Origin: Patescibacteria group bacterium UBA2773
GTDB taxonomy: Bacteria > Patescibacteriota > Minisyncoccia > Moranbacterales > DUUL01
Assembly: GCA_002352465.1 (NCBI GenBank)
Contig: DEIN01000017.1
Location: 64,777-128,776, forward strand
Reading direction: 5' to 3'
Length of the DNA: 64,000 nt
The translations under genes and the position numbers were made by a program. Every line of letters starts with the position of its first letter. Within the stretch, counting starts at the first letter, position 1. This document shows, one piece after another, positions 20,325-64,000 of the stretch. Below the pieces are notes generated by a model, which saw nothing but the letters and a program-made list of their open reading frames with translations, made no database searches and had not been told where the DNA came from.

Positions 20325-20430
20325 GAAAATTTTTTTGTTTAGTTTTTGTCTTTTCTTGGGGTTTTAAATTGATTTTTCAAGTTGAGGAGCGAAAAAATAA
20401 AACTATTTTTAATAAATTTTTACAAAGAAT

Positions 20431-34539: not shown

Positions 34540-34935
34540 TTGACCACAGTGGAACGGTGGTCGAACCGTGGGAGACTACAAGAGGGAAATAAATTAAATA
34601 ATCAATATTCAACAATTAGCATTCATTCAACATTCAAGGTTCTAAAAATCAAACAACTTAAATTAGTCTAAAAGTTTTTCAAAATTTCCCTCGGTTTGAC
34701 CAGTGTATTCACATCGGTCGAACTGGGGAGGATTTTGTTTCGAAAAAATTTTATGTTAAAATAAATTTACTGAAAATAGCCTTTAATATTTTTGAAATAC
34801 AAAATAAAACATTTTTTTTAAAACTCAAAATTTCCCTAAAAACCTTTCCTCTGGTTTCCACTGGTTGAACCAGTGCACTGGTTCAACCAGTGGAAACCAG
34901 TGTATTCACCTAGGTTGAACTGGGGGAAAAACTTA
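34540..34935. repeat. Non-coding region packed with REP-like palindromes of families 1 and 2
   Basis: 34546-34573 is gcggtttgaccacagtggaacggtggtcgaaccgtggg. 34684-34735 is a family-1 unit. 34858-34893 is the perfect 36-bp palindrome ccactggttgaaccagtgcactggttcaaccagtgg, followed by another family-1 unit. Confidence 0.7.
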
Positions 34936-41068: not shown

Positions 41069-41115
41069 GGTATTGAGCATCTAGTATTAAGTGGGGAGGT
41101 TTTTGGACTAAGCGA

Positions 41116-41167
41116 GTTCTGGAGGTTTGACCTCGGTGGATACCGCGGTTGAACCTCGGGAATGGAG
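41116..41167. repeat. REP-like family-1 palindromic element directly after the LamG gene stop
   Basis: ctggaggtttgacctcggtggataccgcggttgaacctcgggaatgg. It is nearly identical to 59794-59843. Confidence 0.7.
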
Positions 41168-41424
41168 TTTCGGAAATAGAACATACTATAGAAAAGAAGT
41201 AAATTCAAAATTAAGCATCATTTATAAATTACAAATTATAAATTAATTCGAAATACGAGGATTTGTATTTTAGGTTGATTAGATTTCTGTTTATTTTCGC
41301 TAAATCCGCCTGCCAGTAGGCAGTACTATGGTGAGGCAAGCCTGAGCAGAAATGAAAAAATAAGAGAACAAGCGATAGAAAATATGAACACAACATTTTT
41401 CTATCGGTTTCTCCCACTGGTCTC

Positions 41425-41460
41425 CCACTGGTTGAACCAGTGCACTGGTTCAACCAGTGG
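41425..41460. repeat. REP (family 2) perfect 36-bp palindrome upstream of the RAYT gene
   Basis: ccactggttgaaccagtgcactggttcaaccagtgg. A half-copy tctcccactgg precedes it. Confidence 0.85.
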
Positions 41461-41596
41461 GAATTAAAAAATTGATAATAAATTCAAATGTTCTCAGTTT
41501 TTTTGTTTCAATTTAATTAGAAAGATAGTTTAGGGGATAGTTTGTTGATTGAGTCTTGGTTTCAGTTGAATAACTAATTAAATTAAATCAAATCCA

Positions 41597-42253
41597 ATGA
41601 AAAAAGAACTTTTTTGGGGAGATTGTTATCATATTTTTAATAGGGGTGTAGAAAAAAGAAAGGTTTTTTGTGATAAATATGATTACAAAAGATTTATTGA
41701 CAGTATGAAAGAATTCAACAACCACGAAGTTGGATCTTTGCGAGATAGATTAGATTCAAAATTTTCCACTGGTCCAACCAGTGCACTGGTTCAACCAGTG
41801 GAAGAAGAAAAGCTGGTTGAAATAGTAGCTTATTGCTTGAATGCTAATCATTATCATTTAATTTTAAAAGAAGTTTCTGAAGATGGTATTGCAAAATTTA
41901 TTCAAAAAATAGCAACAGGTTATACTCGATATTTTAATGAAAAGTATAAAAGAACAGGTGGTTTATTTCAAGGTCGGTATAAAAGAGTCGAAGTGGAATC
42001 GAACCCGCAATTGCTTTATTTGTCGGCTTACGTTAATGGAAATCATTACATTCATAAAATTAAAGAACTTGAGAGTTGGGAGTTTTCAAGTTTGCCAGAA
42101 TATTTGAAAAATAAAAAAAATGGATTTTGTTTTAAGAACGATATTTTAGGTCAATTTAATAATAGTGGAGAAGATTATTTAAAATTTTGCAAGAAAAATT
42201 GTGATGACATAAAAGAGAAAAGAGCTTTCTCTAAATTTTTGTTAGAAGAATAA
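41597..42253 (+). mobile_element. REP-associated tyrosine transposase (RAYT, IS200/IS605-like Y1 HUH transposase)
   Basis: The product is 218 aa with the HUH motif NHYHLIL, then GGLFQGRYKRV...LLYLSAYV, which matches the G-LWQ-RY / catalytic Tyr region of RAYTs. REP palindromes lie upstream, inside and downstream of the gene. Confidence 0.7.
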
Positions 42254-42276
42254 GGTGCGTTTCGTTTGTTGATTTT

Positions 42277-42312
42277 CCACTGGTCCAACCAGTGCACTGG
42301 TTGGACCAGTGG
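42277..42312. repeat. REP (family 2) perfect palindrome 24 nt downstream of the RAYT stop
   Basis: ccactggtccaaccagtgcactggttggaccagtgg. Confidence 0.85.
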
Positions 42313-49000: not shown

Positions 49001-52000
49001 AACAAACGATTAGGAGTGGGAACAGCGACGCCAACCACTGGTTTAGAGCTTTATGGTTCAACGGTCGACACAATTTTCACGATTACTTCGGCTAGTGATA
49101 CTTATAATCCAATGATGCAATTTAGGTCTGGGGCGACTCCTTCAGTTGGATTCTCTTTAGGAATGGACAACTCTGACAGTGATAAATTCAAGATTTATCC
49201 AGGGGATGACATTGCTGGAACTAGTATCTTTACCATGGATTCAGTTGGAAAAACTTCTATTTCTAATCTTCAATTAGGAAGTCAATCTTTCGCTGATGAT
49301 TCAGGAATAATTAGTTGGATTGATATGGCCGTCACCAGTAGTGCAGTTGATGACACGGTTGAATCCTATACTGCAATGCTGGATGGAAATGCGATGATAA
49401 CAGTTTATGGACTTTCTGACGGAGCCGGTGGAGTCGATAATTTGGGAGTTGGTATTAACACTGCCACGCCAACGGCCAGACTTCATCTTCCAGCGGGAAC
49501 AACCACTGCCGGTACGGCACCGTTGAAACTAACCAACGGAGATATAATGACTGCTGGAGAAGCTGGAGCTTTAGAATATGACGGATCTGAGCTTTATTTC
49601 ACTCCAAGTGGAACTACTCAAGAAACTGTGGCTTATGTTTCAGATATCACAGCTAGCGCCGTTTCTTTGACTAATTCTCCTGGAACTTATGATTATCTAA
49701 CTCTTTCTGGTCAAGCTATTACTCTAGCTCAAATTGATTTAACCACTGACATTACTGGAATTTTGCCAATGGCCAACGGTGGAACCAACAAAAATATGAC
49801 CGCTTCTGCTGGTTCAATTGCTTATTCTGACTCTGATTCTCTTGAATTTTCCGCCGTCGGAACTGCTGGTCAAGCTCTGATCTCTGGTGCTACTGGCGCT
49901 CCAACTTGGTTTGCTCCAACGGCTGGATCGCTCTTATTTGCTGGAACTTCTGGAATTCTTCAACAAGACAACGCAAGCTTATTCTTCGACGATACCAACA
50001 ACCGATTAGGAATTGGAACCGCTACGCCAAGTTATACATTAGACATTAATGGAGCTAGCGGGGTGACGGATTTATTCCAAGTGGCTACTAATGGCACTAG
50101 CGTTTTAACTGTGACGGACACTCAAACTACTTTTGATAATCCAGTTAATTTCGCCAATGTCGGAGATGTTTCAATGGCTTATGACTTGTTGATGACCAAT
50201 GCAACGGCGGGGAATATTAAATTCTCGGGACCGGGTTATGTTCAAACTGACAGCGCTTGGCAGAATTTGGATTTGACTTTGAACGCCGCTAATGATGGAT
50301 TTGTGGTAGTGGATGATACTTTACAAAATGCGCTAGATTTAACCACTACCACTGCTGGAGACTACTACGGTTTCTTAGGTGATGTTAACTCTACTGGAAT
50401 TTTCACCGCTGATACTACGAATACTTACGGAGTTTATGGAGATGCTTCCTCAACTGGAGTGTCAACTGGTGGAACAGTCAACACTTATGGCGGATATTTC
50501 ACTGCTACCGGAGAAAGCACTGGTGCTGCCACTACTAATGCTTATGGTTTGTATGTGGATGGAGCAACTGGCGCTGACAATAACTACAGCGCGGTGTTTG
50601 AGAATGGGAATGTCGGAATTGGCGACGCTACTCCTTCTGCCCTTTTAACCGTTGGAACTAGTGACGCTTTCCAAGTAGATAGCTCTGGAAATTTGACAAC
50701 GACAGGAACAGTGGAGGGTTTGACTCTAGCTTCAGCGGCGGATGGTTTCACAATTGCTGGTGGAACAACTTCAAGAACTTTGACTATTACTGGAGCGGAT
50801 GTTTCAATTAATCAATCTCTGCAAACAACTGATGCTCCAACTTTTGCTACTTTAAACACTGGTCAAGGAGATTATGAACTTTATGCGATGAATCAAGATT
50901 TGGAAACGACTGATAGTCCGAGTTTTGTTTCGCTTGATCTTCAAGAAGCGGGAACAGCTAAAGTTAATACCGATATTTTCTCGATTACCAATTCTGGCAA
51001 TGCAGTTGATATGGATGGAACTTTAAGTTCAATTCTTTTCAATCAATACTATTATGATGCTTCCACTCCAGCGGTGGCGGATGCCGGACGAATTTCAATT
51101 GGAACGGAAACTGACTGGACTTCAACTGCTTCCACTCAAGATTCATACCTTTCATTATCAGTGGCTGTTGATGGGACTTTGACTGAATATGCCAAATTGA
51201 CTAGTGCTGGATATTTCAATATCTATGATTCAACTGGAGCTGATTATGTTTCCATTTATCACGATGGAATGGATGCTCAAATCAGCACCAACACTGGTTC
51301 AATTGAAATTGGTTCTTCTGGAGATTTTGTGATTGACAGTGGTGTAAATGTTGGAATTGGTGGGGTGACCAGTTTTGGAACCAGTGCTGATAATGTTTTA
51401 GCAATTGCTTCGAGCACGGCGCCAACTACTTCAATTACAGATGGGGTTCAGCTGTACAGCATTGAAGCCACTGGCTATCATCGACTATATGTTCGAGATG
51501 AAGAAGGGAACGCTACTCCTGTTTCTCCTCATGATTTTTCCTTATTGCCTGAAGATGAAATAAGAGAATCTTTGTCTTGGTCTTACTATTCAGAAAAAGA
51601 TGATTCGGCAATTAATGTTGATATGACTAAAGCAATCAGACTAATCGAACAAATTTCTGGTGAAAAATTGATTTATAAGGTTGACTTGTTGACTGGTTTG
51701 GAACTTGTGGAAGAAAATCTTGATTTGGAAATAGATTCAGAATTCTTGTTTAGTGAAGAACAACAACAGGCAATTACAGTTCTTACTAATAATCTTGAAA
51801 CTTTGCAAACTGAAACGACTGACACGCAAGCCCGATTGATTGAAATAGAAACTTTGGTTGAAAGTTTGACTTCATTTGACAGTTTGGCGGCTGAACAACT
51901 TTCTTCTCAACAACAAAGAATTAACGCTTTGGAAATCGCAATTGAGACTGGAATAATCCCAGATGCTGAAAAATTCTCAGTTGACGCCGAGGGCAATGTC

Positions 52001-52318
52001 ACTTTTGCTCAAACGCTTTTTGCCGAAAAAGTTGAGTCAAATGTGATTGTGGCGGGAGAATATGTGATTGCTAAAGATGAAAGTGAGAGCGATAAGAATA
52101 CTGGTTCGGTGACAATCTATGCCGGGCAATCAGAAATTTTTGTAGAAAATACCAAGATTAATAATAGCTCTAGAGTAATGGTGACTCCAATTGGAAGTAG
52201 TCCAATTAATTGGATTGTTTCTGAGAAGAGGGAAGGACAAGGATTTATTATTAAATTAGACGGTGGCGTTAGTGAAGATATTGTATTTGATTATTGGATA
52301 GTTCAGGCGGAGGAATAG
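43016..52318 (+). CDS. Giant (3100 aa) membrane-anchored Gly/Thr/Ser-rich fibre-like repeat protein
   Basis: N-terminal TM (MVFFAVFLGFILFSIP). Motifs recurring 3+ times include LTNSPGIYDYLTLSGQALTLDQIDLTTDVSGILP, NVGIGTTDPS and GTTSAGSAPLKLTSGD...GALEYDGSKLYFTP, which are tail-fibre-like. The C-terminus has a coiled-coil. Several near-identical 150-bp intragenic DNA repeats are present. Confidence 0.7.
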   Translation: MSKMNLVQTKIIEKIKANFSQKRELILGKGGDFVMVFFAVFLGFILFSIPAEASIAMDLSMFVLDKETNKPLEGVQTVIFSIYPENSEIAIWQETQEIELNFGLIRTALGEINVLPLNLNMLDNNYYLGIKIGDDKELVPRKRISPNLFAVSSAYAQNAGSLNGSVIGENEGNLMLLGKGGEVDSKFLSSDLSLLGDEIDISSETNLGVAGSLLTLSGDNLSVKEGVLTDGRFCTYSTTNGLVCDTDGGAITHDEVTLSNSPGIYDYLTLSGQALTLDQIDLTTDVSGILPDVNVANNLTIDGGLIFGTDLDLKTGTDITEGRIQWDATTDRIVVGTGSDFTTFYSGSGAGGIAGSGITNHLAYWLDSNTLTSTGGSASQMLINNASSVPTFVSIGGDIAITSGGLTSIQADSVALGTDTTGSYVQSITNGNGISGADGGSESAILTLAIDATTTGTTVTTASNSGLETTADGLRIIGGCSDGQILTWNSSLEVWSCNNNTGGTSNWTDSGNLTFLTNTTDDFAIGGGTLASAMFAIDESAGNFYFASDNSANPTFLFEATDSDTGSFGFNTNDAFYFSDANVGIGTTDPSTFFEVATTARFSGSVDETALGLDRIDIGVQNGTPRMVFEDNSYTRWEIDNSEGVFRWFTPGFERLTLDASGNMNLVTGNLEIGSVSVLTSARQLQNLTGLASSGTITFSGLTTDGVVTVSSGALSSEAQLAISQGGTGASLTDPNDDRIMFWDDTAGAVTWLDLGANLTITGTTIAATDTNTTYTAGIALDLNSTTFDVDLSELTTSTADIDGDYFVVIDTSNAQKKLTKANIALSGFDNDLGWTTSTGDITSVVAGAGLTNGGTSGDVTLNIGAGTGITVNADSIEATLGTAIEKGELVNSGSLSFDWLDSEVANSLTITGGTIDATTTIDKDPVITLGTDLTGNVTLSNLASGTLNATIVANSVALGTDTTGNYVSTITGGTGIDSTGATSGENIVHSLSVNTTEIGTTTWFDKTAGTDILWKFDGESNDGTFGYYEDEDAFGFTNSSVGIGTTNPTAKLQIAAGTTSAGSAPLKLTSGDSMTTVEAGALEYDGSKLYFTPVGTRETVAYISDITGAAHPAVTIGTASGLSIDGSQVLSLGLASSGVTGALSGTDWDTFNAKQVALTIGDLSGMADQVTVANGAGSIIGSGVTLSLPQSIAITSTPTFGGLTLTTDLSVDNGGTGTSTFTSGGMLYGNGASAIGATAVLSNGQLLIGDGSGVPTLTTLTDGTGITITEGAGSITIASTLGETIETGEITNDSILEVDFDVTNVATDNYILSYDSDSGGFTWIDNTGGTGASKWTDDGTFSYLTETNDDLVIGGSTTSAPLFFDSSEATLSLGYNGTSGSLSLYSEVGGTDYTLKFQPSSSMTQNVTYMMPVDDGTSDQTLITNGAGVLAWGTVTEISGAGDITAIGDVSTGSAFTATGTQGTSLYFYDADGRGQLKTADLTAARTYTLPDATGTMALTSQLHDAVTIGTASGLSIDGSQVLSLGLASSGVTGALSGTDWDTFNNKQTAGNYLTALTGDATATGPGSAAITLATVNSNIGVFNNLTVNAKGLVTGASNVAYLTSYTETDPIYIASQAHNIDATDIANLGNLSGTNTGDITLAGTLDYLTLSGQQITRGLIDLTTDVSEILPITNGGTGASSLADLIALGTDTTGNYVKSITNGNGITGGDGGSESAVLTIAIDADTTGTTATTYSNSGLEATADGLRIIGGCSTGQILTWDASDVRWECTTNTAGSSDWTDTGTLTHLTDTANDFAIGGTSLVASMFAIDESAGNFYFASDNSANPTFLFEATDSDAGSFGFNTNDAFYFSDANVGIGDTSPTALFTVGTADAFQIDASGNVTTSGTVEGLTLASAEDGFTIAGGTTSRTLTIAGDDVSINQSLLTTSAPTFVTLNTGNGDYELFAMNQDVETTDSVTFTGLTLSGLTQGSVPFIGASGVVSQDNSNLFFDDTNKRLGVGTATPTTGLELYGSTVDTIFTITSASDTYNPMMQFRSGATPSVGFSLGMDNSDSDKFKIYPGDDIAGTSIFTMDSVGKTSISNLQLGSQSFADDSGIISWIDMAVTSSAVDDTVESYTAMLDGNAMITVYGLSDGAGGVDNLGVGINTATPTARLHLPAGTTTAGTAPLKLTNGDIMTAGEAGALEYDGSELYFTPSGTTQETVAYVSDITASAVSLTNSPGTYDYLTLSGQAITLAQIDLTTDITGILPMANGGTNKNMTASAGSIAYSDSDSLEFSAVGTAGQALISGATGAPTWFAPTAGSLLFAGTSGILQQDNASLFFDDTNNRLGIGTATPSYTLDINGASGVTDLFQVATNGTSVLTVTDTQTTFDNPVNFANVGDVSMAYDLLMTNATAGNIKFSGPGYVQTDSAWQNLDLTLNAANDGFVVVDDTLQNALDLTTTTAGDYYGFLGDVNSTGIFTADTTNTYGVYGDASSTGVSTGGTVNTYGGYFTATGESTGAATTNAYGLYVDGATGADNNYSAVFENGNVGIGDATPSALLTVGTSDAFQVDSSGNLTTTGTVEGLTLASAADGFTIAGGTTSRTLTITGADVSINQSLQTTDAPTFATLNTGQGDYELYAMNQDLETTDSPSFVSLDLQEAGTAKVNTDIFSITNSGNAVDMDGTLSSILFNQYYYDASTPAVADAGRISIGTETDWTSTASTQDSYLSLSVAVDGTLTEYAKLTSAGYFNIYDSTGADYVSIYHDGMDAQISTNTGSIEIGSSGDFVIDSGVNVGIGGVTSFGTSADNVLAIASSTAPTTSITDGVQLYSIEATGYHRLYVRDEEGNATPVSPHDFSLLPEDEIRESLSWSYYSEKDDSAINVDMTKAIRLIEQISGEKLIYKVDLLTGLELVEENLDLEIDSEFLFSEEQQQAITVLTNNLETLQTETTDTQARLIEIETLVESLTSFDSLAAEQLSSQQQRINALEIAIETGIIPDAEKFSVDAEGNVTFAQTLFAEKVESNVIVAGEYVIAKDESESDKNTGSVTIYAGQSEIFVENTKINNSSRVMVTPIGSSPINWIVSEKREGQGFIIKLDGGVSEDIVFDYWIVQAEE

Positions 52319-52374
52319 GAGGGAGAATTTTAAATTTTAAATTTGAAGTCAATTTTAAATGTTTTAATTTTCAA

Positions 52375-52845
52375 GAAAAAACCCACCTAGCCTCCTCGCC
52401 TCGCTAAAGCTATGGCGGAGCGGGTCTTTGAAAAGGGAGGGGAGCAAAAAACAAGTTTTTTAAAAAATTAGACATTTTAATTAGGGCGAAGCATCCCCCT
52501 TTCCTAAAAGGGGAATTAAAGGGGGTTTTAACAAATAACAAGTATTGACTGAATTTTATTTCGGTAAAAAAACGACGCAAAAAATTGGGTCTAGGAGGCT
52601 TTTAAATTAAAAAAAGGATTAGAAATACTTGGGAAATTTTAAATTTAGAATTTTAAATTTTACTTGCCTCGCCAGAAGTTTATTGAAGGCGGGATTCAAT
52701 TTTGAATGATTTAATTTTTAATTTTAAAATAAAAACCCACCCAGCCTCCCTTTGCGAAAGGGAGGGGAGCGAAGAAGAATATTTTAATCGGGGTGAAGTG
52801 TCCCTCTTTTGGAAAAGGGGGAGGAGCGTGGAACAAGATTTAAAG
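52375..52845. repeat. Array of at least five MITE-like units between two giant genes
   Basis: aaaacccacctagcctcctcgcctcgctaaagctatggcggagcgggtc. gcatccccctttcctaaaaggggaattaaagggggtttt. aaaacccacccagcctccctttgcgaaagggaggggagcgaagaag. gtccctcttttggaaaagggggaggagcg. Confidence 0.65.
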
Positions 52846-53032: not shown

Positions 53033-56000
53033 ATGAATAAATTAAAATACACAATCTATTTTTTGATTTTTGGAATAGCAACATTGACAGCTAATCAAAC
53101 TCAAGCTGTTTACCTCGTTGCTGGGCGAAAAAAGTTTCGGTTTGGATTATTCTTGATTTTTGCTGTTTTCTTTTTTGGTCTAGCTATAGCCTCGCCGACT
53201 TTTGCTGCTACTTGCAACGATCAAGCGGATGGAAATTGGAACTCGGCGGCGACTTGGGATTGTGGGATTGTTCCGGATGCCGATGATGATGTGACGATTG
53301 ATTCGCATACGGTGACGATGACGGCCGATTCGCTTTCCAATACTGTCACGATTTCTGGTGGGACTTTATCTTCTGGCAATTATAAAATTATTACTAAGGA
53401 TTTTGTGCAAACGGGAGGGACGGTTTCGATGGGGTCGGGAGCGATGAAAGTGGCGGGGGATTTCACTAGGATGGGAGGGATTTTCACGGCGGGGACGAGT
53501 GTGGTTTCGTTGGTGGGAGTGGATCAAACCATTGACGTGACAGGAGCACCGACAACATTTTATAAACTTTATAAACTTACTAATTCGGCGGATACTTTGA
53601 CTATCACCGCTGGGAATGAATTGATGATTGCGTCAGGTGGGGTGATGCGGTTTTGGGGAAAACCAGAATCAAAAACTTTATCCATTGTTTCTTCCAGTCC
53701 TGGAACTTCCTACACTATTACTCGAATGGGAACCGCTGAACTAGAATACACCGATTGGTCGGATGCGACTTGGTCTGCTTCTCAAACAGTGGCGGCTTCT
53801 AGTTTGGGAACTGGAAATACTAATTTGACCGTGACAAAAGAATTTATTTCGACTATCAGAGCAACGGGTGGAGATTATTCCTCTTTGTCTTCTTGGGAAT
53901 CAGCCAATCAAACTGATTTAACGGCGACGACTACCAAAGTTTTTTCTCACGGCGGAATTACTGGCACCATCGCTGACACCGACACAATCACTGGTTCAAC
54001 CAGTGGAGCGACCGCTAATGTTGTCCACGCCACCACAACTCAAATACTTCTTGAATCAATTTCTGGTACTTTCCAATCTGGCGAGCAAGTTCAAGTGGAT
54101 GCCTCTAACCTCGTCACGATTTCGGACGCCGGCTTCGGCGCCATTTCCACGGCGGAATGCTACAACGATTGGCCGAGCGGGTTGGTGGAAGATTATGTGT
54201 CAATTTCTGGTTGGACAACGGGTAAAAATAATTATGTAAAAGTTTATACACCTCAAGGTCAACGTCACAACGGTGTATTAAAAAATGAAAGTGGAAATTA
54301 TACAGGTTTTACAATTAAACAAACAAATTATTCTGGTAAGACCTCGGTTTTTGGTAACGAACAAAATTATACGATTATTGATGGGATAATTATAGTTGCT
54401 GCTGAAAGTCAGGTTTCCTACGGGATTTCGAGTGAAGTCGCATATTCCACTGTGAGTAATAATATTGTTTACAGGGAGGTTGGTACAGGACAGCAAGGAA
54501 TAAGATTTTATACGACAGCAAGTGTCGGTTCGTATATTTTTAATAATATTGTTTATGGATCTGACAGTAATAATTGGGAAATTTGTTTTATGGGTTGCAA
54601 GGGAGAGGTATATAATAACGTGGCTTATGAGTGTGATTATGGGTTTGTTAATTATTCTACTTACGATAATGAATTGACAAATAATAGTGCATTCAATAAT
54701 AATATTTATGATTTTGGTGGTTCTGTTAATGCAATTATTTCAAATAGTATATCAAGTGATGGCACAGCTGATGATTTTGGGGGTAGCGATAATATTGTAG
54801 ATGCGACTTTGGCTGATCTAGATTTTGTCTCGACTACGTCTGGATTAGAGGATTTGCACATTGAAACAGATTCGGTGGCCCGAAATGAGGGATTGGATTT
54901 GTCGGTTGATCCTGATTATCCATTAGTTTCTGATATTGACGGAGATTCAATGCTGGGGTTTGCGGAGTGGTCGATTGGGGCAGATCAATATTCTGATTTT
55001 GACTATTCTTCCCTTAGTCCGACTGATGGAAATAAATCGGTGGCGGTGGGAGCGGATTTTGTGATGAATTTCTCAGAAAGTGTGACAGCCCAAGCGGGAA
55101 AATATATTTATATTAAACGAGAAGATGATGACTCAACGGTTTTTGCGATTGAAGCTGACGACACCACCCAAGTTTCGGGTTCGGGCACGGTGCAAATCAC
55201 TGTCAATCCAGCCGAGAATTTGGAAGCGGGAACAAAATATTACGTCACAATGGACAGGAGTTGTTTTATAAATGTTTATTTGCACCAAAACGCGGTGATT
55301 TCCGACAGCATCGAGTGGAATTTTCAGACTGCGTCTTTTGATTGGCATGATAAGTCTTGGACTAAACGCAAAAAAATCACCATTGACGAGGGGGAAGTCT
55401 CGGGTGGGCAAACTGATTTTCCGGTTTTGCTTTCCGTGACGGACACTGATTTCAAAGACCACGCTCAAACTGATGGCAATGATTTTTTCTTGACTGACAC
55501 CGCTGGCAACCAACTTCCGCACGAAATCGAATCCTACACCGCCTCAACTGGTGAGTTGGTTTTGTGGTTTAAAGCCTCCTATCTTTATGACACCTCTGAC
55601 ACTCATTTCTATGTATATTATGGCAATTCGTTGGCAGATGATCAGCAAGACGCGGAGAATGTTTGGGATGAGAATTACAAAATGGTTCAGCATATGGATG
55701 ATACTACAACGTCAACTATCACTGATTCAACGGCTAATGATAATGATGGAACAAAATATGCAGTTAATGAACCAGCGGCGGGAACAGGATTATTGGCTGA
55801 TGGCTTAGTTGGAAAGGCACAAGACTTTGATGTGGTTGACGATGTGGTTAATTGTGGCTCTGGAGCATCTATTGATGATATTTTTGCTGGTGGTGGAACT
55901 GTTCAATTCATAATGAAGCCACAAGGTTGGGGTGAGTTTGAATATGGAAGAGTCTTAGATAAGGGTCCCGATGCTTCTAATTTAACATCTACACAATTTT

Positions 56001-57778
56001 ATATTTCCTCTAATGGTGATCTCCTCTTTACTAAATCTTTTTCAACTACAAACGGAGTTTGGGGTCCTGGTTCTGACACAATTTCATTAAATAATATATA
56101 TTTTTGTAGTTTGGTATATGATAGTGATTCTGTCACAAATAATCCTATTATGTATTTAAATGGATCAGATGCTACAGCACTAGCAGCTGCTACGCCATCT
56201 GGATCTGCAACATCAGATGCTGGAAATGATTTATTTTTAGGTGCAAGGGGCACGGATAGAGAATTTGATGGGCTTATAGATGAAGTTAAGTTTTTATCAA
56301 CAGAGTTATCAGCAGATTGGATTTCAACAGAATACAACAACCAATCCGCGCCGGGGGATTTCTTGAGTTTGAGTGCGGAGGAATCAAGTGGAGCAGAGTC
56401 TTCGGCCGGGCAAGACGGGGGAGTGAGTAGCGACGGTTTGGTCGGTTACTGGTCTTTTGACGGCTCCGACATCTCTGGCACGACGGTTTATGATCGAAGT
56501 GGCCAAGGCAACAACGGAACTTTGACCAATGGCCCCACTCCTGCTCTAGGTAAACTTGGTCAAGGAATGAGTTTTGATGATACTAATGACTATGTAAATA
56601 TTGGAAATATTTCTGCTTTAAAACCTGCTTTTCCTTTTAGTGTTTCTTTTTGGTCGAAAAGAACAATAGGTAGTGGAGTCGTTTTCAGTACTGGACCAGC
56701 TAATATGGGTGCGTCTGGTTATAGAGGTTGGATGATTTATGATGGAGGAGATTTTAGGGGCGGTGATGGATCAGGTGTCGGAATTGGAGACAGATTTGGG
56801 CGGAATGTACTTGTTAATCCTGGCATTGATGGCATTTGGCATTATAAAACGATTGTAGTGACTAGCTCTACTAATATTAATTTATATTTAGATGGAGAAT
56901 TAAATAATGGTGCATACACAAATGGAACTGCTTCTAGTTTGGGATATGGATCGGACAGGGTTCTTATTGGTGCAAGTGATGATGGGGGAACTCCAGAGAA
57001 TTTTTTTGGTGGCTTTGTTGATGAAGTTCGGGTTTATAATCGAGCTTTGTCGGCTAATGAAATTTCCGGGCTTTATAATTCCGGGCAAGCGAAATTCCAA
57101 ACTTCTGATAACGAAAATAATCTTTCTGATGGTTTGGTAGGCTATTGGCCATTTGACGGCTCCGACATCTCTGGCACTAACGCCTATGACCGTTCGGGAA
57201 ATGGCAACAACGGCACTCTCACCAACGACCCCATCCCCGCCCTAGGAAAATTAGGTCAAGCGTTGAGTTTTGACGGGATGGACGATTATGTCTTAGTGCC
57301 AAACAGTTCTGAAATTCATCCAGTAAATGAATTGACAATAGGGGCTTGGGTTAACCAAAATAATAATGCTACTAGTCCATATCAAAGAATAACTGAAAAA
57401 AATGATGATTTAACGTGTTGGATTAACGATAATAATGGTGATGTGTGTGTTAGGCTCAGTGCTAATAAAAATGGTGAAGCGTCTCAAACTTGCTTTGAGG
57501 CAGATATAAGTCAAAATAGGTGGTATCATTTATTTTTTACTTATAAAAGTGATGAATCTGTCGTTAGTCTTTACATTGATGGAGAATTATTTGATACTAG
57601 TAGCTATTACTATGGACTTTTAACGACTAATACTAATGCTTTGTATATTGGTAATAAGAGTAGTATTGATAGATCTTGGATGGGACAAATTGACGAAGTG
57701 CGGATTTATGATCGGGCTTTGTCGGCTGTTGAAATATCCCAATTATACAACATGGGTCGAGTGGAAATAACGAACTAA
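53033..57778 (+). CDS. Giant (1581 aa) secreted protein with a beta-helix-like N-terminal region, an AECYNDWPSGL module and C-terminal LamG-like modules
   Basis: The N-terminal leader contains VAGRKKFRF. The FISTIRATGGDY...AECYNDWPSGL module is shared with the 60043 gene. The C-terminus has two LamG modules (SDGLVGYWSFDGSDISGT.VYDRSG.GNNGTLTN...FFGGFVDEVRVYNRALSANEI). Confidence 0.7.
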   Translation: MNKLKYTIYFLIFGIATLTANQTQAVYLVAGRKKFRFGLFLIFAVFFFGLAIASPTFAATCNDQADGNWNSAATWDCGIVPDADDDVTIDSHTVTMTADSLSNTVTISGGTLSSGNYKIITKDFVQTGGTVSMGSGAMKVAGDFTRMGGIFTAGTSVVSLVGVDQTIDVTGAPTTFYKLYKLTNSADTLTITAGNELMIASGGVMRFWGKPESKTLSIVSSSPGTSYTITRMGTAELEYTDWSDATWSASQTVAASSLGTGNTNLTVTKEFISTIRATGGDYSSLSSWESANQTDLTATTTKVFSHGGITGTIADTDTITGSTSGATANVVHATTTQILLESISGTFQSGEQVQVDASNLVTISDAGFGAISTAECYNDWPSGLVEDYVSISGWTTGKNNYVKVYTPQGQRHNGVLKNESGNYTGFTIKQTNYSGKTSVFGNEQNYTIIDGIIIVAAESQVSYGISSEVAYSTVSNNIVYREVGTGQQGIRFYTTASVGSYIFNNIVYGSDSNNWEICFMGCKGEVYNNVAYECDYGFVNYSTYDNELTNNSAFNNNIYDFGGSVNAIISNSISSDGTADDFGGSDNIVDATLADLDFVSTTSGLEDLHIETDSVARNEGLDLSVDPDYPLVSDIDGDSMLGFAEWSIGADQYSDFDYSSLSPTDGNKSVAVGADFVMNFSESVTAQAGKYIYIKREDDDSTVFAIEADDTTQVSGSGTVQITVNPAENLEAGTKYYVTMDRSCFINVYLHQNAVISDSIEWNFQTASFDWHDKSWTKRKKITIDEGEVSGGQTDFPVLLSVTDTDFKDHAQTDGNDFFLTDTAGNQLPHEIESYTASTGELVLWFKASYLYDTSDTHFYVYYGNSLADDQQDAENVWDENYKMVQHMDDTTTSTITDSTANDNDGTKYAVNEPAAGTGLLADGLVGKAQDFDVVDDVVNCGSGASIDDIFAGGGTVQFIMKPQGWGEFEYGRVLDKGPDASNLTSTQFYISSNGDLLFTKSFSTTNGVWGPGSDTISLNNIYFCSLVYDSDSVTNNPIMYLNGSDATALAAATPSGSATSDAGNDLFLGARGTDREFDGLIDEVKFLSTELSADWISTEYNNQSAPGDFLSLSAEESSGAESSAGQDGGVSSDGLVGYWSFDGSDISGTTVYDRSGQGNNGTLTNGPTPALGKLGQGMSFDDTNDYVNIGNISALKPAFPFSVSFWSKRTIGSGVVFSTGPANMGASGYRGWMIYDGGDFRGGDGSGVGIGDRFGRNVLVNPGIDGIWHYKTIVVTSSTNINLYLDGELNNGAYTNGTASSLGYGSDRVLIGASDDGGTPENFFGGFVDEVRVYNRALSANEISGLYNSGQAKFQTSDNENNLSDGLVGYWPFDGSDISGTNAYDRSGNGNNGTLTNDPIPALGKLGQALSFDGMDDYVLVPNSSEIHPVNELTIGAWVNQNNNATSPYQRITEKNDDLTCWINDNNGDVCVRLSANKNGEASQTCFEADISQNRWYHLFFTYKSDESVVSLYIDGELFDTSSYYYGLLTTNTNALYIGNKSSIDRSWMGQIDEVRIYDRALSAVEISQLYNMGRVEITN

Positions 57779-57796
57779 GAATTAAGTATCTTTCCT

Positions 57797-57851
57797 AATT
57801 TCCCTCATCGGTTTGACCGTTGTATTCATATCGGTCGGACTAGGGGAAATT
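57797..57851. repeat. REP-like family-1 element immediately after the giant-gene stop
   Basis: aatttccctcatcggtttgaccgttgtattcatatcggtcggactaggggaaatt. Confidence 0.7.
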
Positions 57852-57932
57852 ATGATTGGAAATAGCTTTGTCAATTTTTTAAAAATAAGTTAAAATTACT
57901 TATAAATTGGATTAAAAAATATAAAATAAAAA

Positions 57933-58529
57933 ATGGAAGAGAAAAAAAAGATTATTGTAGAGAACTCTATAGAGACGGTTAAAAAAAGAAAATATAAAAT
58001 TGATTATCGAAACTTGAGTTTTTTGATTGGAGGATTGATTTTATTGATTGGGATTATTGGAGGAGGGATTTGGTTTTTTAAATCAAAAAAAGGAGAAGTC
58101 AAAGTTTATGATGCTTTGGTGATGTTGAAAGATCAAAAATCTGCTAATTCCGAAGAAGATGCTAAAAATTCAGCCAAAAAAGGAGATGTGATTTTGATCA
58201 GAGAAACTGGTCAAGAATGGTCAAAGACGGAAAAAATCAGTTATTTGATTTTAAAAATTAAATTGAATGAAAAACAAGCGCAAAAAATTGTTCAGGCTAA
58301 AACCAAAAAACTTTCGAAAGATGAAGCCAAGGAAAAAGGACTGGTGGATGATGAGCGATTGAAAACTATGGAAAAAGAAGAGCTTGAGCAGACCTTAAAA
58401 GAGGATATTTTGTTTCGGGAATATCGAGTAAAGATTGAAAAGTTGGAATTTGATCCGATGAAAGTCCGGAATGAGCAACCGTTTGAAGATGAGGAGTTTG
58501 GGTGGAGTCTTGTTGAGAAAAAAGATTAA
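57933..58529 (+). CDS. Hypothetical single-pass membrane protein with a charged C-terminal domain
   Basis: The product is 198 aa. It has an N-terminal TM (LSFLIGGLILLIGIIGGGIWFF) followed by K/E-rich sequence. Confidence 0.45.
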   Translation: MEEKKKIIVENSIETVKKRKYKIDYRNLSFLIGGLILLIGIIGGGIWFFKSKKGEVKVYDALVMLKDQKSANSEEDAKNSAKKGDVILIRETGQEWSKTEKISYLILKIKLNEKQAQKIVQAKTKKLSKDEAKEKGLVDDERLKTMEKEELEQTLKEDILFREYRVKIEKLEFDPMKVRNEQPFEDEEFGWSLVEKKD

Positions 58530-58660
58530 AAGAATTTATAGTCAATATATGACAAAAAGAAAAATAAACGTAAAAAATAGAATCAGTTAGTTTTATCTTG
58601 GAACATACTGTCGATAATGGCAGAAAATAAATAATCTAAATTTTAAACTGGTCGAATTCG

Positions 58661-59722
58661 ATGGGTTTAGAGGTTGACGAAAAGACAATTGACATTAAAC
58701 AACCTGATATGTTAAAAAAAAATCAACAAAAATCACAAATCATTATTTATAAAACTGAAGATGGACGGACGAAAATCGACGTGCGTTTTGATGGGGATAC
58801 GGTTTGGTTGACGCAAAAACTTATAGCGCAGTTGTTCCAGGTTTCTATACCAACTATAAATGAGCATATTAAAAATATCTACAATGAGGCTGAATTAAAT
58901 AAAAATTCAACTATTAGGAAATTCCGAACAGTTCAAAAAGAAGGCAATCGTGAAATAAAAAGAGCGCTGGAGTTTTATAATCTTGATCTTATTATTTCCG
59001 TTGGTTATCGGGTTAAAAGCTCAATTGCTACAGCTTTCCGTCAATGGGCGACGCAGCGTTTAAGCGAATATATTATAAAAGGTTTCGTGCTTGACGATGA
59101 ACGACTTAAAAATCCAGATTTGCCTTTTGATTATTTTGAAGAACTTACTAGGCGAATTGCTGATATTCGAATAAGCGAAAAAAGATTTTATCGTAAAATT
59201 ACTGATATTTATGCAACTAGTGTTGATTATAATCCAACTAGTAAGGAAAGTCTTAGGTTTTTCAAAACTGTCCAGAACAAAGTTCATTGGGCAATAACCG
59301 GTCAAACTGCACCGGAAATTATTGCATCACGTGTCGATAGTAAAAAACCGCAAATGGGACTGACTTCCTGGCGAGCTGTAAAACCACGCAAAGAAGATGT
59401 TGCGATTGCAAAAAATTATTTGAACGAAAAGGAATTATTGGCTTTGAATAATCTGGTTGAACAGTATTTAGTATTTGCTGAGGGTCAGGCGATGCGTCGA
59501 GTGCCGATGTATATGAAAGATTGGATTGATAAATTGCACGGTTTTTTGTCGATTAATGATCGAAAAATATTAAATAATGCAGGTAAAGTATCGCACGAAA
59601 AAGCTTTGGAAAAAGTAGATAAAGAATATGAAATTTTTCATAAAAAATCGAAAGAAAAGTTTATAGAAACGGATTTTGATCGAGAGGTGAAAAGGATATT
59701 AAAAAAGGGGGAAAGAAAATAA
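58661..59722 (+). CDS. RhuM family (virulence-associated, Fic/DOC-related DNA-binding) protein
   Basis: IRKFRTVQKEGNREIKRALEFYNLDLIISVGYRVKSSIATAFRQWATQRLSEYIIKGFVLDDERLKN is the hallmark RhuM core. Confidence 0.75.
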   Translation: MGLEVDEKTIDIKQPDMLKKNQQKSQIIIYKTEDGRTKIDVRFDGDTVWLTQKLIAQLFQVSIPTINEHIKNIYNEAELNKNSTIRKFRTVQKEGNREIKRALEFYNLDLIISVGYRVKSSIATAFRQWATQRLSEYIIKGFVLDDERLKNPDLPFDYFEELTRRIADIRISEKRFYRKITDIYATSVDYNPTSKESLRFFKTVQNKVHWAITGQTAPEIIASRVDSKKPQMGLTSWRAVKPRKEDVAIAKNYLNEKELLALNNLVEQYLVFAEGQAMRRVPMYMKDWIDKLHGFLSINDRKILNNAGKVSHEKALEKVDKEYEIFHKKSKEKFIETDFDREVKRILKKGERK

Positions 59723-59734
59723 AATCCTTAAATT

Positions 59735-60030
59735 TCAAACAAAAACCCCTCGGTCCCCCTTCTCAAAGGGGAAGGAGCGAAGGAGATGATCTAGTTCCGG
59801 AGGTTCGACCTCGGTGGATACCGCGGTCGAACCTCGGGAACGGAGATGGAATTTTGAAAGATTGGTATTAAGTATTAAGTATTGAGTATAAAACCCACCC
59901 AACCTCCCTTTTCAAAGGGAGCGGAGCGGAGAACAAGTTTTTGAAAAATAAATAATTAAAATCGATGTAAAAATTTTTCTAGGAGTTTCCACCGGTTCGA
60001 TCGGTGTATCCATATTGGTCGAACTGGTAA
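59735..60030. repeat. Composite of two MITE-like units and two REP-like family-1 palindromes
   Basis: 59740-59790 aaaacccctcggtcccccttctcaaaggggaaggagcgaagg. 59794-59843 ccggaggttcgacctcggtggataccgcggtcgaacctcgggaacgg. 59885-59940 aaaacccacccaacctcccttttcaaagggagcggagcgg. 59985-60030 ccaccggttcgatcggtgtatccatattggtcgaactgg. Confidence 0.7.
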
Positions 60031-60042
60031 AAAATAAATTAT

Positions 60043-63000
60043 GTGTTTATTATGAAAAAAATAAAAATTAGTTTAATATTTTTTATTTATTTTATTGCTT
60101 TAGCTAGTGCTAGGGGTTTTTTGGGGGTTTACTCCGTTGCTGGGCGAAAAAAGTTTCGATTTTTAAAACCTTTATTAGTTAGCTTCATTTTCTTTTTTGG
60201 GCTAGCTATTACCTCGCCGGCTTATGGGGCGACGGAATTTATTTCAACCATCAGGTCTAGCGGTGGGGACTATACAACTCTTTCTGGTTGGGAATCAGCC
60301 AATCAAACGGATTTGACCGCTTCAACTACCAAAGTTTTTTCGCACGGTGGAATCACTGGAGCGATTGCTGACACCGACACCGTCACGGGAAAAAATTCTG
60401 GAGCAACGGCTTCGGTGGTTCATACTACTACCGACCAAATTCTTCTAGAAACAATCTCGGGAACTTTTCAATCGGGAGAGCAAATTTATGTCACGCTTGA
60501 TACTATTTACGTGACAATTTCAGATGCAGGAGATTCTGCTATTGCCGTCGCCGAATGCTACAACGATTGGCCAAGCGGGTTGGATGACTCGGTCAATATT
60601 GACGGTTGGACAACGGGAGTGAATAATTATGTGAAAATTTACACTCCAGAATCAGAAAGACATAATGGTAAAATTTTCAATGGCACAGACTATACTGGAT
60701 TTGCTTTAAAAAGTACTCAAGTTGGAAATGTTATTGATTTATCTGCTAATTATTCAAGGATTGATGGTTTGATAATTGATGCAGCTCATGTAGATGTGGA
60801 AGATGGAATTAGCGAAGAAGGAGCATTACTTGATCATTTTATTTCAAATAATATTTTATACAGATCTGTTGGGAATAATGATAATGGAATTTACACTTAT
60901 TCTACGAGTTCTATTAATAGAACAATTGTTTGGAATAATATAGTTATTTGCGGTGATTCTAATACATGGAGTTCTGGTATAAACACTAATCATGGAGATA
61001 TACAAAATAATACTGTTTATAATTGCACTAATGGAATTACTCAATCTATAGATTATCCTAATAAATTAAATAATAATATTTCTGTTGATAATTCTTCCGC
61101 TGATTATTTATTAAGCGCTGGTAGTTGGCAAGTGGATTCTAGTAATAACATCTCCTCTGACACCACTGCTCCTGAAGCGAATTCTCAAACCAGTGTAGCG
61201 TTAGCGGATTTGGATTTTGTGAGTACCACTTTAGGTTCGGAGGATTTTCATATTGGGGCGGATTCAGTGGCGTTGAATGCAGGGGTAGATTTATCTTCAA
61301 CTTTTACAGATGACATTGATGGGCAGACGCGGGATATGGATGGGGAGGGTTTTGATATTGGGGCAGATGAGGGACAGCAGGATTTTATTTCTAAAATTAG
61401 AGTTAATACCGAGTCAGATTGGGATTTTGATAAACTTTCAACTTGGGAAGATGCGATTGAGTCAGATCTGACCGCCACCACTTCCAAAATATATACCGTT
61501 TCTGACACGGGAACTTTTGACGACACCACTGACCAAGAGCAAGCCGTGACGTTCACCGGTGGGGGAACTGGAACTTTGCTCGATATCAATTCTTCGGGGG
61601 TGGCGTATATCACCGGTGTTTCTGGCACAGTGCAAGCGGGAATCGTCACGGTTGACACCAATTCCCACACTTTTACCATCTCCGACACCGGCGCCAAAGT
61701 CGGCCGAGCCGTCGCCGAATGCTACAACGATTGGCCAAGTGGGCTGGAGGATAATTTTTGGATTAGTGGTTGGACAACTAGCGCAACGAATTATGTAAAA
61801 GTTTATACATTAGCAAGTGAAAGACACGATGGTTGGACTTGGACGGATGACACTCAAACTGTTTATTCTGGTTTTGCAGTTGTGAATAATTCAATTTATT
61901 GTACAATTCGTGCTAGCAATTATTATACACAAATCGAAGGAGTTATTGTTAATCAAAACAATAAAGGTGGTGGTACTTATAGCGGTTTGCGATTAGGCGA
62001 TTATGTTAAAGCAGATTCTATAATTGCTTTTAATTCACCTAAAGCTGGGGTAATGACTGTTCCAGGTACATGGACAAACCCTTTATATTTATCAAATATT
62101 CTTGTTTATGATAATAATTATGGAATTTATAATGGTTATGGGGTTAGACTTTATAATGTGACAGCAGTGAATAATACCAGTTATGGAATTTACAAAAATA
62201 ATCTTTTAACTACGTATTTAAAAAATGTTTTAGCTTATGATAATGGTATCAAAGATTTTTATAATTCAGGTAGTGGTGATTTCGATGTTTTAAATTGTGC
62301 CTCTTCTGATGATACAGCTGATGATTTTGGTGGCTCTGGAAATCGGATTGATCAAGAATTTTCTTTTGTAGATGAAGATAATGATGATTTTCATTTGGCT
62401 TTGGATGACACGGGGGCGAGGAATTTTGGAACTGATTTGAGTTTGGATTCGACTTTTCCTATTTCAACAGATATTGATGGGGAAGTGCGGGATGTGGATG
62501 GAGAAGGATGGGATATTGGGGCGGATGAGAGTGGGCAGGATTTTGTTTCGAAAATTCGAGTGAATACCGAGTCGGATTGGGATTTTGATAAACTTTCAAC
62601 TTGGGAAGATGCAATTGAATCGGACTTGACGGCGACGACTTCTAAAATCTATACGGTTTCTGATACCGGAACCTACAGCGACACTACCGACCAATCTCAA
62701 GCCGTGACATTCACCGGCGGGGGAACTGGAACTTTGCTGGATATCAATTCTTCGGGTGTAGCCTATATCACCGGAGTTTCTGGCACAGTCACGGCTGGAA
62801 CCGTCACAGTCACTTCTTCCTCCCACACTTTCACCATCTCCGACACCGGCGCCAAAGTCGGCCGAGCCGTCGCCGAATGCTACAACGATTGGCCAAGTGG
62901 GTTGGATGATAGGGTTGATATTAATGGTTGGATAACGGGGGTGAATAATTATGTTAAAGTTACTTCACCATCTTCTGAGAGACACACAGGAGTTGCTGGA

Positions 63001-63774
63001 ACCGGATTTATAATAAAAAATGATACGAATTCATATGTTGTAGGTTTATATAATTACTACTCTGTTGTTGAATGGTTGGAGGTTACCGGAGTCGGAGCGG
63101 ATACAACTTATCACAATGGTGTTGGAATGAGTCGATACTCTACCGCTAGAAATTTGATTGTTCATGATATAGTAACAAACGATGGAGGTGATCTTGTGAC
63201 AGGTATATCAATGGGTTCTAATGGAGGAAGTTATATATATAACAATATTATTTATAATATTAAAAATTATTCTGCAACCGTCACAAAGAATCCGAACGGA
63301 ATCAAATACATAGGAACCTCTCCATTTATTTATAATAACACTGTCTACGGTATCGATGCTCCTAATAATCCTGGAAAAGGTACTGGTATTTTTGCAGGTC
63401 TGGGATTTGTTAAAAATAATATTGTAATTAACAGCGGATATGTGGATTTTAATATTATGGAAAGTGCAAATCATACTAATAATATATCTTCTGATGATAC
63501 GGCGCTGGGGTCGAATTCTCAAACCAGTGTAGCGTTAGCGGATTTGGATTTTGTGAGTACCACGGCGGGAACGGAAGATTTGCATATTGGTGAAGACTCA
63601 GTCGCGCGAAATGTGGGGACGGATTTGTCTTCGGTTTTTACACTGGACATTGATGGTTATGAGCGGGGAGTGGGATTGACTAGTTGGGATATTGGAGCGG
63701 ATGAGGTGAATGAATATACTACTACTATTAAGGGAGGGGTTAATATTAAGGGAGGGGTTAAGATTACTAATTAA
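60043..63774 (+). CDS. Giant (1243 aa) secreted protein with three tandem ~386-aa beta-helix-like modules, each containing AECYNDWPSGLDD
   Basis: The leader has VAGRKKFRF. Modules 2 and 3 are near-identical at the DNA level (61378-61755 vs 62536-62913). Each module ends with DIDG..RD.DGEG.DIGADE. The C-terminus is IKGGVNIKGGVKITN. Confidence 0.7.
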   Translation: MFIMKKIKISLIFFIYFIALASARGFLGVYSVAGRKKFRFLKPLLVSFIFFFGLAITSPAYGATEFISTIRSSGGDYTTLSGWESANQTDLTASTTKVFSHGGITGAIADTDTVTGKNSGATASVVHTTTDQILLETISGTFQSGEQIYVTLDTIYVTISDAGDSAIAVAECYNDWPSGLDDSVNIDGWTTGVNNYVKIYTPESERHNGKIFNGTDYTGFALKSTQVGNVIDLSANYSRIDGLIIDAAHVDVEDGISEEGALLDHFISNNILYRSVGNNDNGIYTYSTSSINRTIVWNNIVICGDSNTWSSGINTNHGDIQNNTVYNCTNGITQSIDYPNKLNNNISVDNSSADYLLSAGSWQVDSSNNISSDTTAPEANSQTSVALADLDFVSTTLGSEDFHIGADSVALNAGVDLSSTFTDDIDGQTRDMDGEGFDIGADEGQQDFISKIRVNTESDWDFDKLSTWEDAIESDLTATTSKIYTVSDTGTFDDTTDQEQAVTFTGGGTGTLLDINSSGVAYITGVSGTVQAGIVTVDTNSHTFTISDTGAKVGRAVAECYNDWPSGLEDNFWISGWTTSATNYVKVYTLASERHDGWTWTDDTQTVYSGFAVVNNSIYCTIRASNYYTQIEGVIVNQNNKGGGTYSGLRLGDYVKADSIIAFNSPKAGVMTVPGTWTNPLYLSNILVYDNNYGIYNGYGVRLYNVTAVNNTSYGIYKNNLLTTYLKNVLAYDNGIKDFYNSGSGDFDVLNCASSDDTADDFGGSGNRIDQEFSFVDEDNDDFHLALDDTGARNFGTDLSLDSTFPISTDIDGEVRDVDGEGWDIGADESGQDFVSKIRVNTESDWDFDKLSTWEDAIESDLTATTSKIYTVSDTGTYSDTTDQSQAVTFTGGGTGTLLDINSSGVAYITGVSGTVTAGTVTVTSSSHTFTISDTGAKVGRAVAECYNDWPSGLDDRVDINGWITGVNNYVKVTSPSSERHTGVAGTGFIIKNDTNSYVVGLYNYYSVVEWLEVTGVGADTTYHNGVGMSRYSTARNLIVHDIVTNDGGDLVTGISMGSNGGSYIYNNIIYNIKNYSATVTKNPNGIKYIGTSPFIYNNTVYGIDAPNNPGKGTGIFAGLGFVKNNIVINSGYVDFNIMESANHTNNISSDDTALGSNSQTSVALADLDFVSTTAGTEDLHIGEDSVARNVGTDLSSVFTLDIDGYERGVGLTSWDIGADEVNEYTTTIKGGVNIKGGVKITN

Positions 63775-63779
63775 TTAAC

Positions 63780-64000
63780 AAGGATTGTTAATTACAAGAT
63801 ACAAGAAACAAGGACACCCACCTCCGCTAAAGCTACGGCGAGGCAAGCAAGAAATAAATAAATTAAGTCATAAAGGACACAAGATACAAGGACGCAAGAT
63901 ACAAACAAATTAAAAATTAAAATATTTAAATTTCAAATAAAAAGCTTCGCTTTGATAAGATATACAAGGACACCCACCTCCGCTAAAGCTACGGCGAGGC
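63780..64000. repeat. Repeat block at the window end (caaggacacaagatacaa-type plus MITE-like acacccacctccgctaaagctacggcgaggc, twice)
   Basis: It shares caaggacRcaagaWacaaacaaattaaaaatt...atttaaatttcaaa with 24671-24733. cacccacctccgctaaagctacggcgaggc occurs at 63817 and 63975. Confidence 0.6.

Follow-up and report, generated by a model that had tools for sequence, protein, structure and literature searches.

How did three long, similar units come to lie in one giant patescibacterial gene, and what would a protein built of them do? The gene in question is an open reading frame (ORF) at 60043-63774 on the forward strand of the window, by which we mean the whole stretch of DNA analyzed here: 64,000 nucleotides (nt) from Patescibacteria group bacterium UBA2773 (contig DEIN01000017.1, positions 64,777 to 128,776). 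A previous sequence-only reading had described its product as three modules, two of them near-identical in their DNA through a recent tandem duplication. We confirmed the ORF and its product of 1243 residues. By itself, the gene is a real, well-folded, ordinary modular surface protein of known type. The interpretation that we favor, and consider fairly probable, is that of a secreted or surface-anchored protein of Patescibacteria (candidate phyla radiation [CPR]) made of three autonomous modules of ~385 residues, the edges of which have been homogenized by patchy conversion while the cores are hypervariable, with a role in attachment through binding or degrading surface glycans.

Layout of the three-module gene

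The ORF opens with GTG at 60043; the database protein, P0001, has 1240 residues (MKKIK...) and starts with ATG at 60052, which is likely the true start. The division into three tandem modules (379, 383, and 389 residues) holds, and motif and repeat searches gave register spacings between module motifs of 1164 and 1158 nt. The features of the gene, with the related module of its neighbor, are as follows.

60043..63774, + strand: coding sequence of the three-module protein (ORF; database protein P0001)
60043..60234, + strand: N-terminal leader, two hydrophobic segments around VAGRKKFRF, ending SPAYGA/TE (by inspection)
60235..61371, + strand: module 1, residues 65-443 (379 residues), with cap helix, inserted beta-barrel, right-handed beta-helix, and choice-of-anchor Q cap
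60550..60582, + strand: AECYNDWPSGL of module 1, residue 170; in the strand formed by module residues 104-108, at the onset of the helix strands
61381..62529, + strand: module 2, residues 447-829 (383 residues), fold as module 1, "type B" N-part
61714..61746, + strand: AECYNDWPSGL of module 2, residue 558
62539..63705, + strand: module 3, residues 833-1221 (389 residues), fold as module 1, "type B" N-part, module-1-like tail
62872..62904, + strand: AECYNDWPSGL of module 3, residue 944
63706..63771, + strand: C-terminal tail, VNEYTTTIKGGVNIKGGVKITN, partly of very low confidence in the model
53840..54988, + strand: fourth, paralogous module, residues 270-652 of the 1581-residue product of a neighboring gene (motif and repeat searches)

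As previously noted, AECYNDWPSGL is present in every module. It has exactly four copies, three in the gene and one at residue 374 of the 1581-residue neighbor (nt 54152-54184), and its 20-nt core, GAATGCTACAACGATTGGCC, occurs exactly 4 times in the window, with 0 occurrences expected. The acidic end motif that had been assigned to all three modules, DIDG..RD(M/V)DGEG(F/W)DIGADE, describes modules 1 and 2 correctly but not module 3, which reads DIDGYERGVGLTSWDIGADE.

By inspection only, the leader would be a Sec signal or a membrane anchor. It is common to both module-bearing genes (60127-60226 versus 53108-53204; 79% nucleotide identity over 101 nt, including a 24-nt exact match), and the VAGRKKFRF motif, identical in both leaders, is in none of the other 98 homologues. 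At the opposite end, the C-terminal tail starts right after the last DIGADE and is a doubled basic repeat (e.g., KGGVNIKGGVKITN or KGNVKFKGNVKFK), which is likely disordered in part, judging from the model. A doubled basic G-x-V tail of the form (K/R)GxVx(F/I)(K/R)GxVK closes 19/213 family members and might serve in sorting or anchoring. The product of the neighboring 1581-residue gene also ends in ...GRVEITN.

Predicted fold and comparison with known systems

A Pfam scan of the whole protein returned nothing significant. The NCBIfam choice-of-anchor Q model (NF041518) scored 37.4 bits against a curated cutoff of 25 (E = 2.3e-9), matching two stretches at module ends, the better of them at residues 401-443. 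In the choice-of-anchor concept, a domain precedes a recognized C-terminal sorting or anchor signal; Pfam and NCBIfam scans found no known anchor domain in the protein.

An alignment of 37 modules was used for AlphaFold2 modeling and for conservation analysis. Module 1 was modeled with a predicted local distance difference test score (pLDDT) of 94.2 and a predicted template modeling score (pTM) of 0.92, and residues 65-1243 with a pLDDT of 87.7 and a pTM of 0.63, the same secondary-structure pattern occurring three times. In each module, residues 2-23 form the first strand and the cap helix and are followed by a beta-rich insertion (~33-95), short regular strands to ~293, and an Asp-rich C-terminal cap (DFH...DIDG..R...DIGADE). 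The beta-helix that the sequence-only reading had raised as a question is thus what the models give: a right-handed parallel beta-helix in each module. Structure comparison agreed: Pel9A, PL6 alginate lyases, LnbX, and pectin methylesterases were retrieved by Foldseek with probabilities of 0.97-1.0. All top matches in the PDB were right-handed parallel beta-helices, and they also included Rhombotarget A, GH87/GH110, AlgE/AlgG, and tailspikes or depolymerases of phages. A profile search of PDB sequences gave marginal matches to PL6, chondroitinase B, and AlgG (E of 0.0036-0.044). The Pfam Beta_helix model (PF13229) matched 5/37 homologous modules (best E = 1.1e-8), and precomputed PF13229 matches exist for several homologues.

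The insertion (~65-75 residues) matched phage fibre/baseplate-wedge domains among predicted viral structures (probability of 1.0, root mean square deviation of 2-4 Å, 20-30% identity) and, weakly, PHROG 358 and 4406. Searched alone against PDB sequences, the N-part retrieved only chance matches to triosephosphate isomerase (E about 1).

With the beta-helix proteins of NF041518 and the PF13229 clan, the modules share the predicted fold and a C-terminal DFH...DIDG..R...DIGA(D/Y)E cap that scores above the cutoff, and NCBI annotates homologues as right-handed parallel beta-helix repeat-containing, choice-of-anchor Q proteins. Unlike NF041518 proteins, the protein here repeats in tandem a larger unit made up of cap, phage-like beta-barrel, helix, and Q-cap, and the whole module is covered by no curated model.

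The AlgE C5-epimerases of Azotobacter vinelandii are secreted and carry one or two beta-helix A-modules of ~385 residues per polypeptide, a number that varies among paralogues; AlgE1 and AlgE3 have two A-modules each. The modules studied here resemble AlgE (PDB entries 2pyg and 5lw3, among the fold matches) in having beta-helices of ~385 residues, although the likeness is at the fold level only (template modeling [TM] score of ≤0.26). In contrast to AlgE, the present protein has no R-modules or RTX repeats, carries an extra beta-barrel insertion, and contains no DPH(D/E) epimerase motif.

The best structural matches were PL6/PL9 lyases and tailspike depolymerases (PDB entries 7dmk, 1ru4, 7w1c, and 6w4q). 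In phage tailspikes, conserved termini flank a variable, receptor-recognizing beta-helix, and the modules of the window likewise have conserved edges around a variable beta-helix. They differ from the PL6/PL9 and tailspike proteins in having tandem rather than single helices, with no trimerization domain identified and no conserved catalytic residues; moreover, the matches are remote (E ≥ 2e-4, 8-14% identity).

Attachment protein, enzyme, or envelope component

The function that we favor is that of an attachment protein. The hydrophobic leader would direct Sec-dependent export, and the protein would be displayed on the cell surface. There, the variable beta-helix surfaces may recognize, and possibly cleave, different cell surface polysaccharides of a host or partner, and the outcome would be multivalent attachment to the host or partner cell. 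Across the 37 modules, the conserved core positions form an Asn/Gly/Tyr ladder, and polar conserved clusters are found at the edges only (W-E near the cap, R142-H143, and the D/H/R-rich cap).

Several observations weigh against this interpretation. The Foldseek matches in the PDB are remote (E ≥ 2e-4, TM scores of 0.3-0.43), and the modules of the window itself fall below Pfam Beta_helix significance, with no match for the protein or for module 1. In the beta-helix core, none of the charged residues is invariant among the 37 modules. The signal peptide was judged by eye. As for the history of the modules set out below, their mosaic identity could arise partly from heterogeneous constraint alone, and the case for conversion draws on synonymous-site statistics from short segments.

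A serious rival, possible but in our view doubtful, is a multicatalytic enzyme that degrades or modifies polysaccharides, in which every beta-helix would have lyase, hydrolase, or epimerase activity of a distinct specificity. The closest folds are nearly all enzymes (PL9, PL6, GH136, GH87, GH110, CE8, AlgE/AlgG, and phage depolymerases), and the module is of the same size (~385 residues) as the AlgE A-module. However, the helix core keeps no conserved acidic or basic residue across the 37 modules, just the Asn ladder and Gly, and the sequence matches to enzymes are all marginal (E of 0.004-0.04). Neither the conserved catalytic residues of PL6/PL9 (a Ca2+ site with a Lys/Arg base) nor the DPH(D/E) motif of AlgE/AlgG was found at the sequence level. 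The lack of an invariant charged core residue argues against a shared catalytic site, without proving a binding role.

That the protein is a structural part of the envelope, as a subunit of an S-layer or sheath, and not an adhesin is improbable. Beta-helix S-layer proteins have been reported from several phyla, and S-layers from Patescibacteria (preprint 10.1101/2024.05.28.596244). Yet the reported beta-helix S-layer class belongs to other phyla, Pfam and NCBIfam scans detected no lattice-forming or known anchoring domain, and hypervariable cores and a variable module number suit recognition proteins better than a lattice. The literature on choice-of-anchor, rhombotarget, and CPR giant or adhesin proteins yielded no functional study of the module family.

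Age and origin of the repeats

The two stretches that had been called near-identical, 61378-61755 and 62536-62913, are identical at only 322/378 positions (85.2%). The BLASTN alignment of the units is limited to 61312-61803 versus 62470-62961, with 83% identity over 495 nt of the 1158-nt unit, and the rest of the module 2 and 3 units has ~22-45% nucleotide identity at the fixed offset, a background level. Amino acid identity between modules 2 and 3 is 84% over the first ~150 residues and 33% over the other ~235, with 22-35% in the beta-helix cores. The similar block runs across the module junction, from the tail of one module into the N-part of the next. The longest perfect matches (69, 52, and 38 bp) are set within otherwise diverged DNA; the 69-bp match is probably a recent short conversion tract. 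The repeats are located as follows.

61312..61803, + strand: copy 1 of the sole long DNA repeat (BLASTN, 83%): module 1 tail, junction, and module 2 N-part
62470..62961, + strand: copy 2 of the long DNA repeat (BLASTN, 83%): module 2 tail, junction, and module 3 N-part
61675..61743, + strand: copy 1 of the 69-bp perfect repeat (exact match), GC-rich, encoding TISDTGAKVGRAVAECYNDWPSG
62833..62901, + strand: copy 2 of the 69-bp perfect repeat (exact match)
61178..61229, + strand: copy 1 of the 52-bp perfect repeat (exact match), in the module 1 tail, encoding NSQTSVALADLDFVSTT
63512..63563, + strand: copy 2 of the 52-bp perfect repeat (exact match), in the module 3 tail

Synonymous sites date these similarities. 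The block shared by modules 2 and 3 has a synonymous divergence (dS) of 0.23-1.8 and a nonsynonymous divergence (dN) of 0.01-0.15; the cores are saturated, or nearly so, for both. We also compared the share of identical residues that keep the same codon with the share expected at saturation. The module 2/3 N-block keeps 70% versus 43% expected (P = 2e-9), whereas the module 2/3 cores keep 55% versus 53% (P = 0.49) and are fully saturated, which makes the block younger than the cores, though far from recent. The tails of modules 1 and 3, which include the 52-bp perfect match, keep 73% versus 44% (P = 1.5e-4) and so form another of the younger tracts. The earlier description of the first module as the more diverged one is half right: its C-terminal tail is nearest to that of module 3, while its N-part is nearest to the neighboring gene's module (74-76% amino acid identity). 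Between these last two N-parts, 50% of codons are kept versus 44% expected (P = 0.12), and with synonymous sites thus saturated, their likeness reads as pure purifying selection.

Nearest-neighbor analysis placed the N-parts of modules 2 and 3 as sisters at 85%, the next relatives (59%) being in other organisms. The beta-helix cores of the two modules have different foreign proteins as their nearest relatives, and each is missing from the best matches of the other. With synonymous sites saturated to a large extent in the block and completely in the cores, the modules are not the product of a recent whole-module duplication. Taken together, identity, codon statistics, discordant neighbors, and perfect patches instead indicate old paralogous modules with conserved edges and segmental conversion. 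The modules are old paralogues of a very large family, with their edges (junction, cap, barrel, and tail) held similar by purifying selection. In addition, segmental gene conversion or partial duplication has probably acted between the module 2/3 N-blocks, between the module 1/3 tails, and in the short perfect patches. The beta-helix cores have diverged to saturation, each with separate nearest relatives.

The competing proposal, that modules 2 and 3 stem from a recent whole-module tandem duplication and that the array is an active hotspot of slipped-strand or unequal recombination with copy number heterogeneity, is very unlikely. Two in-frame direct repeats do lie 1158 nt apart with a 69-bp perfect core, and module number does vary between homologues. 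But the similarity (83-85%) extends over only ~495 nt, less than half of the unit, the cores combine 22-35% amino acid identity with saturated synonymous sites and have different nearest relatives, and three modules are present in both assemblies. The array thus falls outside recently duplicated tandem repeats (>95% identity over the whole unit), and the duplication is rejected by the identity, dS, and same-codon tests alike. The predicted variation in module number does exist across the family (1-5 modules in close homologues, ~18 at most), as variation over evolutionary time. Public data hold no close allele from which to read copy number within a population, the closest homologue being 39% identical.

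Surface adhesins of the alpha C/Rib type have tandem repeats that are near-identical at the DNA level. The present protein resembles them as a surface protein of in-frame tandem units; unlike theirs, its units share 83% identity over under half of their length and are saturated elsewhere, so rapid RecA-mediated switching of copy number is not expected. No reverse transcriptase of a diversity-generating retroelement was found among the ORFs scanned, which were a subset of those in the window, and no search for template and variable repeats was made.

An assembly artefact (a collapsed or expanded repeat), which the sequence-only reading had named as what would overturn its duplication, is effectively refuted: the sequence is metagenome derived and an independent Joint Genome Institute (JGI) contig breaks inside the neighboring gene, but repeats at 83% identity are too diverged for misassembly, the frame is uninterrupted, each of the three modules is modeled with confidence, and the separately assembled contig is identical over the whole gene. 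Across window 53547-64000, that contig (L001; sample 3300001750, 10,565 bp) differs at a single position of 10,454 nt, 63995, which is not part of the gene, and its three-module protein is the same.

The module family

The database search for the module that had been proposed earlier revealed a large family. A profile search of 1.84 billion representative proteins (50% clustering) retrieved 18,656 at E ≤ 1e-3 and 3,958 at E ≤ 1e-30, mostly from Patescibacteria. The largest members have 18-23 matched stretches per protein (e.g., a 7,731-residue protein), or ~18 modules at most. Of 100 homologues, most of them from organisms named Parcubacteria, Moranbacteria, Falkowbacteria, Pacebacteria, or Wolfebacteria, 29 had one module, 42 had two, 11 had three, 8 had four, and 8 had five, and the ECYNDW subfamily marker was present in 19/100.

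Searched with the single protein, the GTDB representative genomes contained only one relative, at 40% identity, in Patescibacteria bacterium UBA2772. This organism has two adjacent giant genes (contig L002, 3-4349 and 4618-13083) with four and six modules, and some of its module copies have a different, third type of N-part. In public metagenomes, the exact 20-mer was found only in a stand-alone protein of 366 residues, in an unrelated context and from an organism of 40-44% GC; this search gave no extra paralogues or donors. The 366-residue protein (contig L003, 4859-5956, - strand; contig L004, 1348-2445, + strand) carries ECYNDWPDGLE, and its upstream order is apparently changed, a barrel-like segment preceding the cap-like GGDYSLMSDWE.

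Mosaic of GC content at third codon positions

Within the gene, GC content at third codon positions (GC3) is 0.40 in the conserved edges versus 0.16 in the cores, with peaks of 0.60-0.67 and troughs of 0.07-0.10; other genes of the window have a GC3 of 0.21-0.34. The contrast between edges and cores persists when stratified by amino acid (Mantel-Haenszel odds ratio of 3.5, P = 4e-16). All four AECYNDW copies in the window share the rare C-ending codons TGC-TAC-AAC, while the UBA2772 copies mostly have TGT/TAT/AAT, and the GC3 of the UBA2772 modules is flat, with no mosaic. A similar oscillation occurs in the neighboring gene at 53033-57778, where GC3 is also high at the starts of LamG repeats (56333-56512 and 57113-57292); taking both genes, values are 0.40-0.67 at these starts and in the module edges and 0.07-0.20 in the variable cores.

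A family-wide mRNA or codon constraint behind the mosaic is rejected by the flat GC3 of the UBA2772 homologues. A simple, universal account by GC-biased conversion is weakened by a nearby gene for a 3100-residue protein, the internal repeats of which have no GC3 rise (0.27 versus 0.27). Candidate explanations are GC-biased gene conversion and the import of edge segments from a higher-GC relative. A further, speculative proposal, to which we give a low probability, is that the GC3-rich edges serve as homology arms for recurrent GC-biased conversion, with cores moving as cassettes from one module or paralogue to another and perhaps from genome to genome. The GC3 contrast, the shared C-ending codons, the 69- and 52-bp patches, and the discordant relatives of N-parts and cores are consistent with such swapping.

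Genomic context

The window carries DnaE, ValRS, RF1, PrmC, transfer-messenger RNA (tmRNA), and tRNA-His and is chromosomal DNA; the relatives of its ValRS are patescibacterial, the nearest named one being from Falkowbacteria (~60%). The tmRNA match (24057-24654, - strand; 57.5 bits) spans 598 nt against a 374-position Rfam model, which suggests a large insertion or an unusual architecture.

The three-module gene stands in a run of giant surface-type genes that includes a protein with six LamG domains, the 3100-residue protein, the neighboring 1581-residue gene (53033-57778), and an Lcl_C protein. The neighbor encodes its single module followed by Big_5, DUF2341, and three LamG domains. Between the two module-bearing genes lie a small membrane-protein gene (57933-58529) and a RhuM-family gene (58661-59722, E = 1.5e-109).

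Other repeats were observed in the window. The 3100-residue ORF (43016-52318), which has no Pfam match, contains DNA repeats of 98% identity over 119 bp (46355-46473 versus 47534-47652), 82% over 311 bp, and 81% over 527 bp (44246-44772 versus 48068-48594). Direct repeats of 185 bp (15648-15831 and 20150-20334, 94.6% identical) flank a gene for a 1426-residue protein (15847-20127) with no Pfam match, which could be an inserted element or a gene with duplicated regulatory regions. An IS200-like Y1 transposase gene (41597-42253) is associated with four copies of a 36- to 50-bp element at 89-95% identity (41414-41463, 41763-41803, 42274-42312, and, ~6.5 kb off, 34848-34896). Around the giant genes, the intergenic regions 41115-41167, 52355-52785, 59719-59942, and 63798-64000 share repeated elements that contain AAAACCCACC(C/T)AGCCTCCC-type stem-loop sequences; among them is a perfect repeat of 37 bp (63808-63844 and 63964-64000). 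Promoter and terminator scans gave matches at the background level.

Implications for Patescibacteria

Patescibacteria need to attach to other cells, and few of the proteins by which they recognize them are known. The module family described here has a fold that is confidently predicted, and the present gene is a compact three-module example that could be used for binding or activity assays. The lineage-specific GC3 mosaic provides a handle on whether gene conversion shapes CPR surface proteins. If the swapping of cores as cassettes is true, it would amount to recombination-based diversification of a host recognition surface in a CPR episymbiont.

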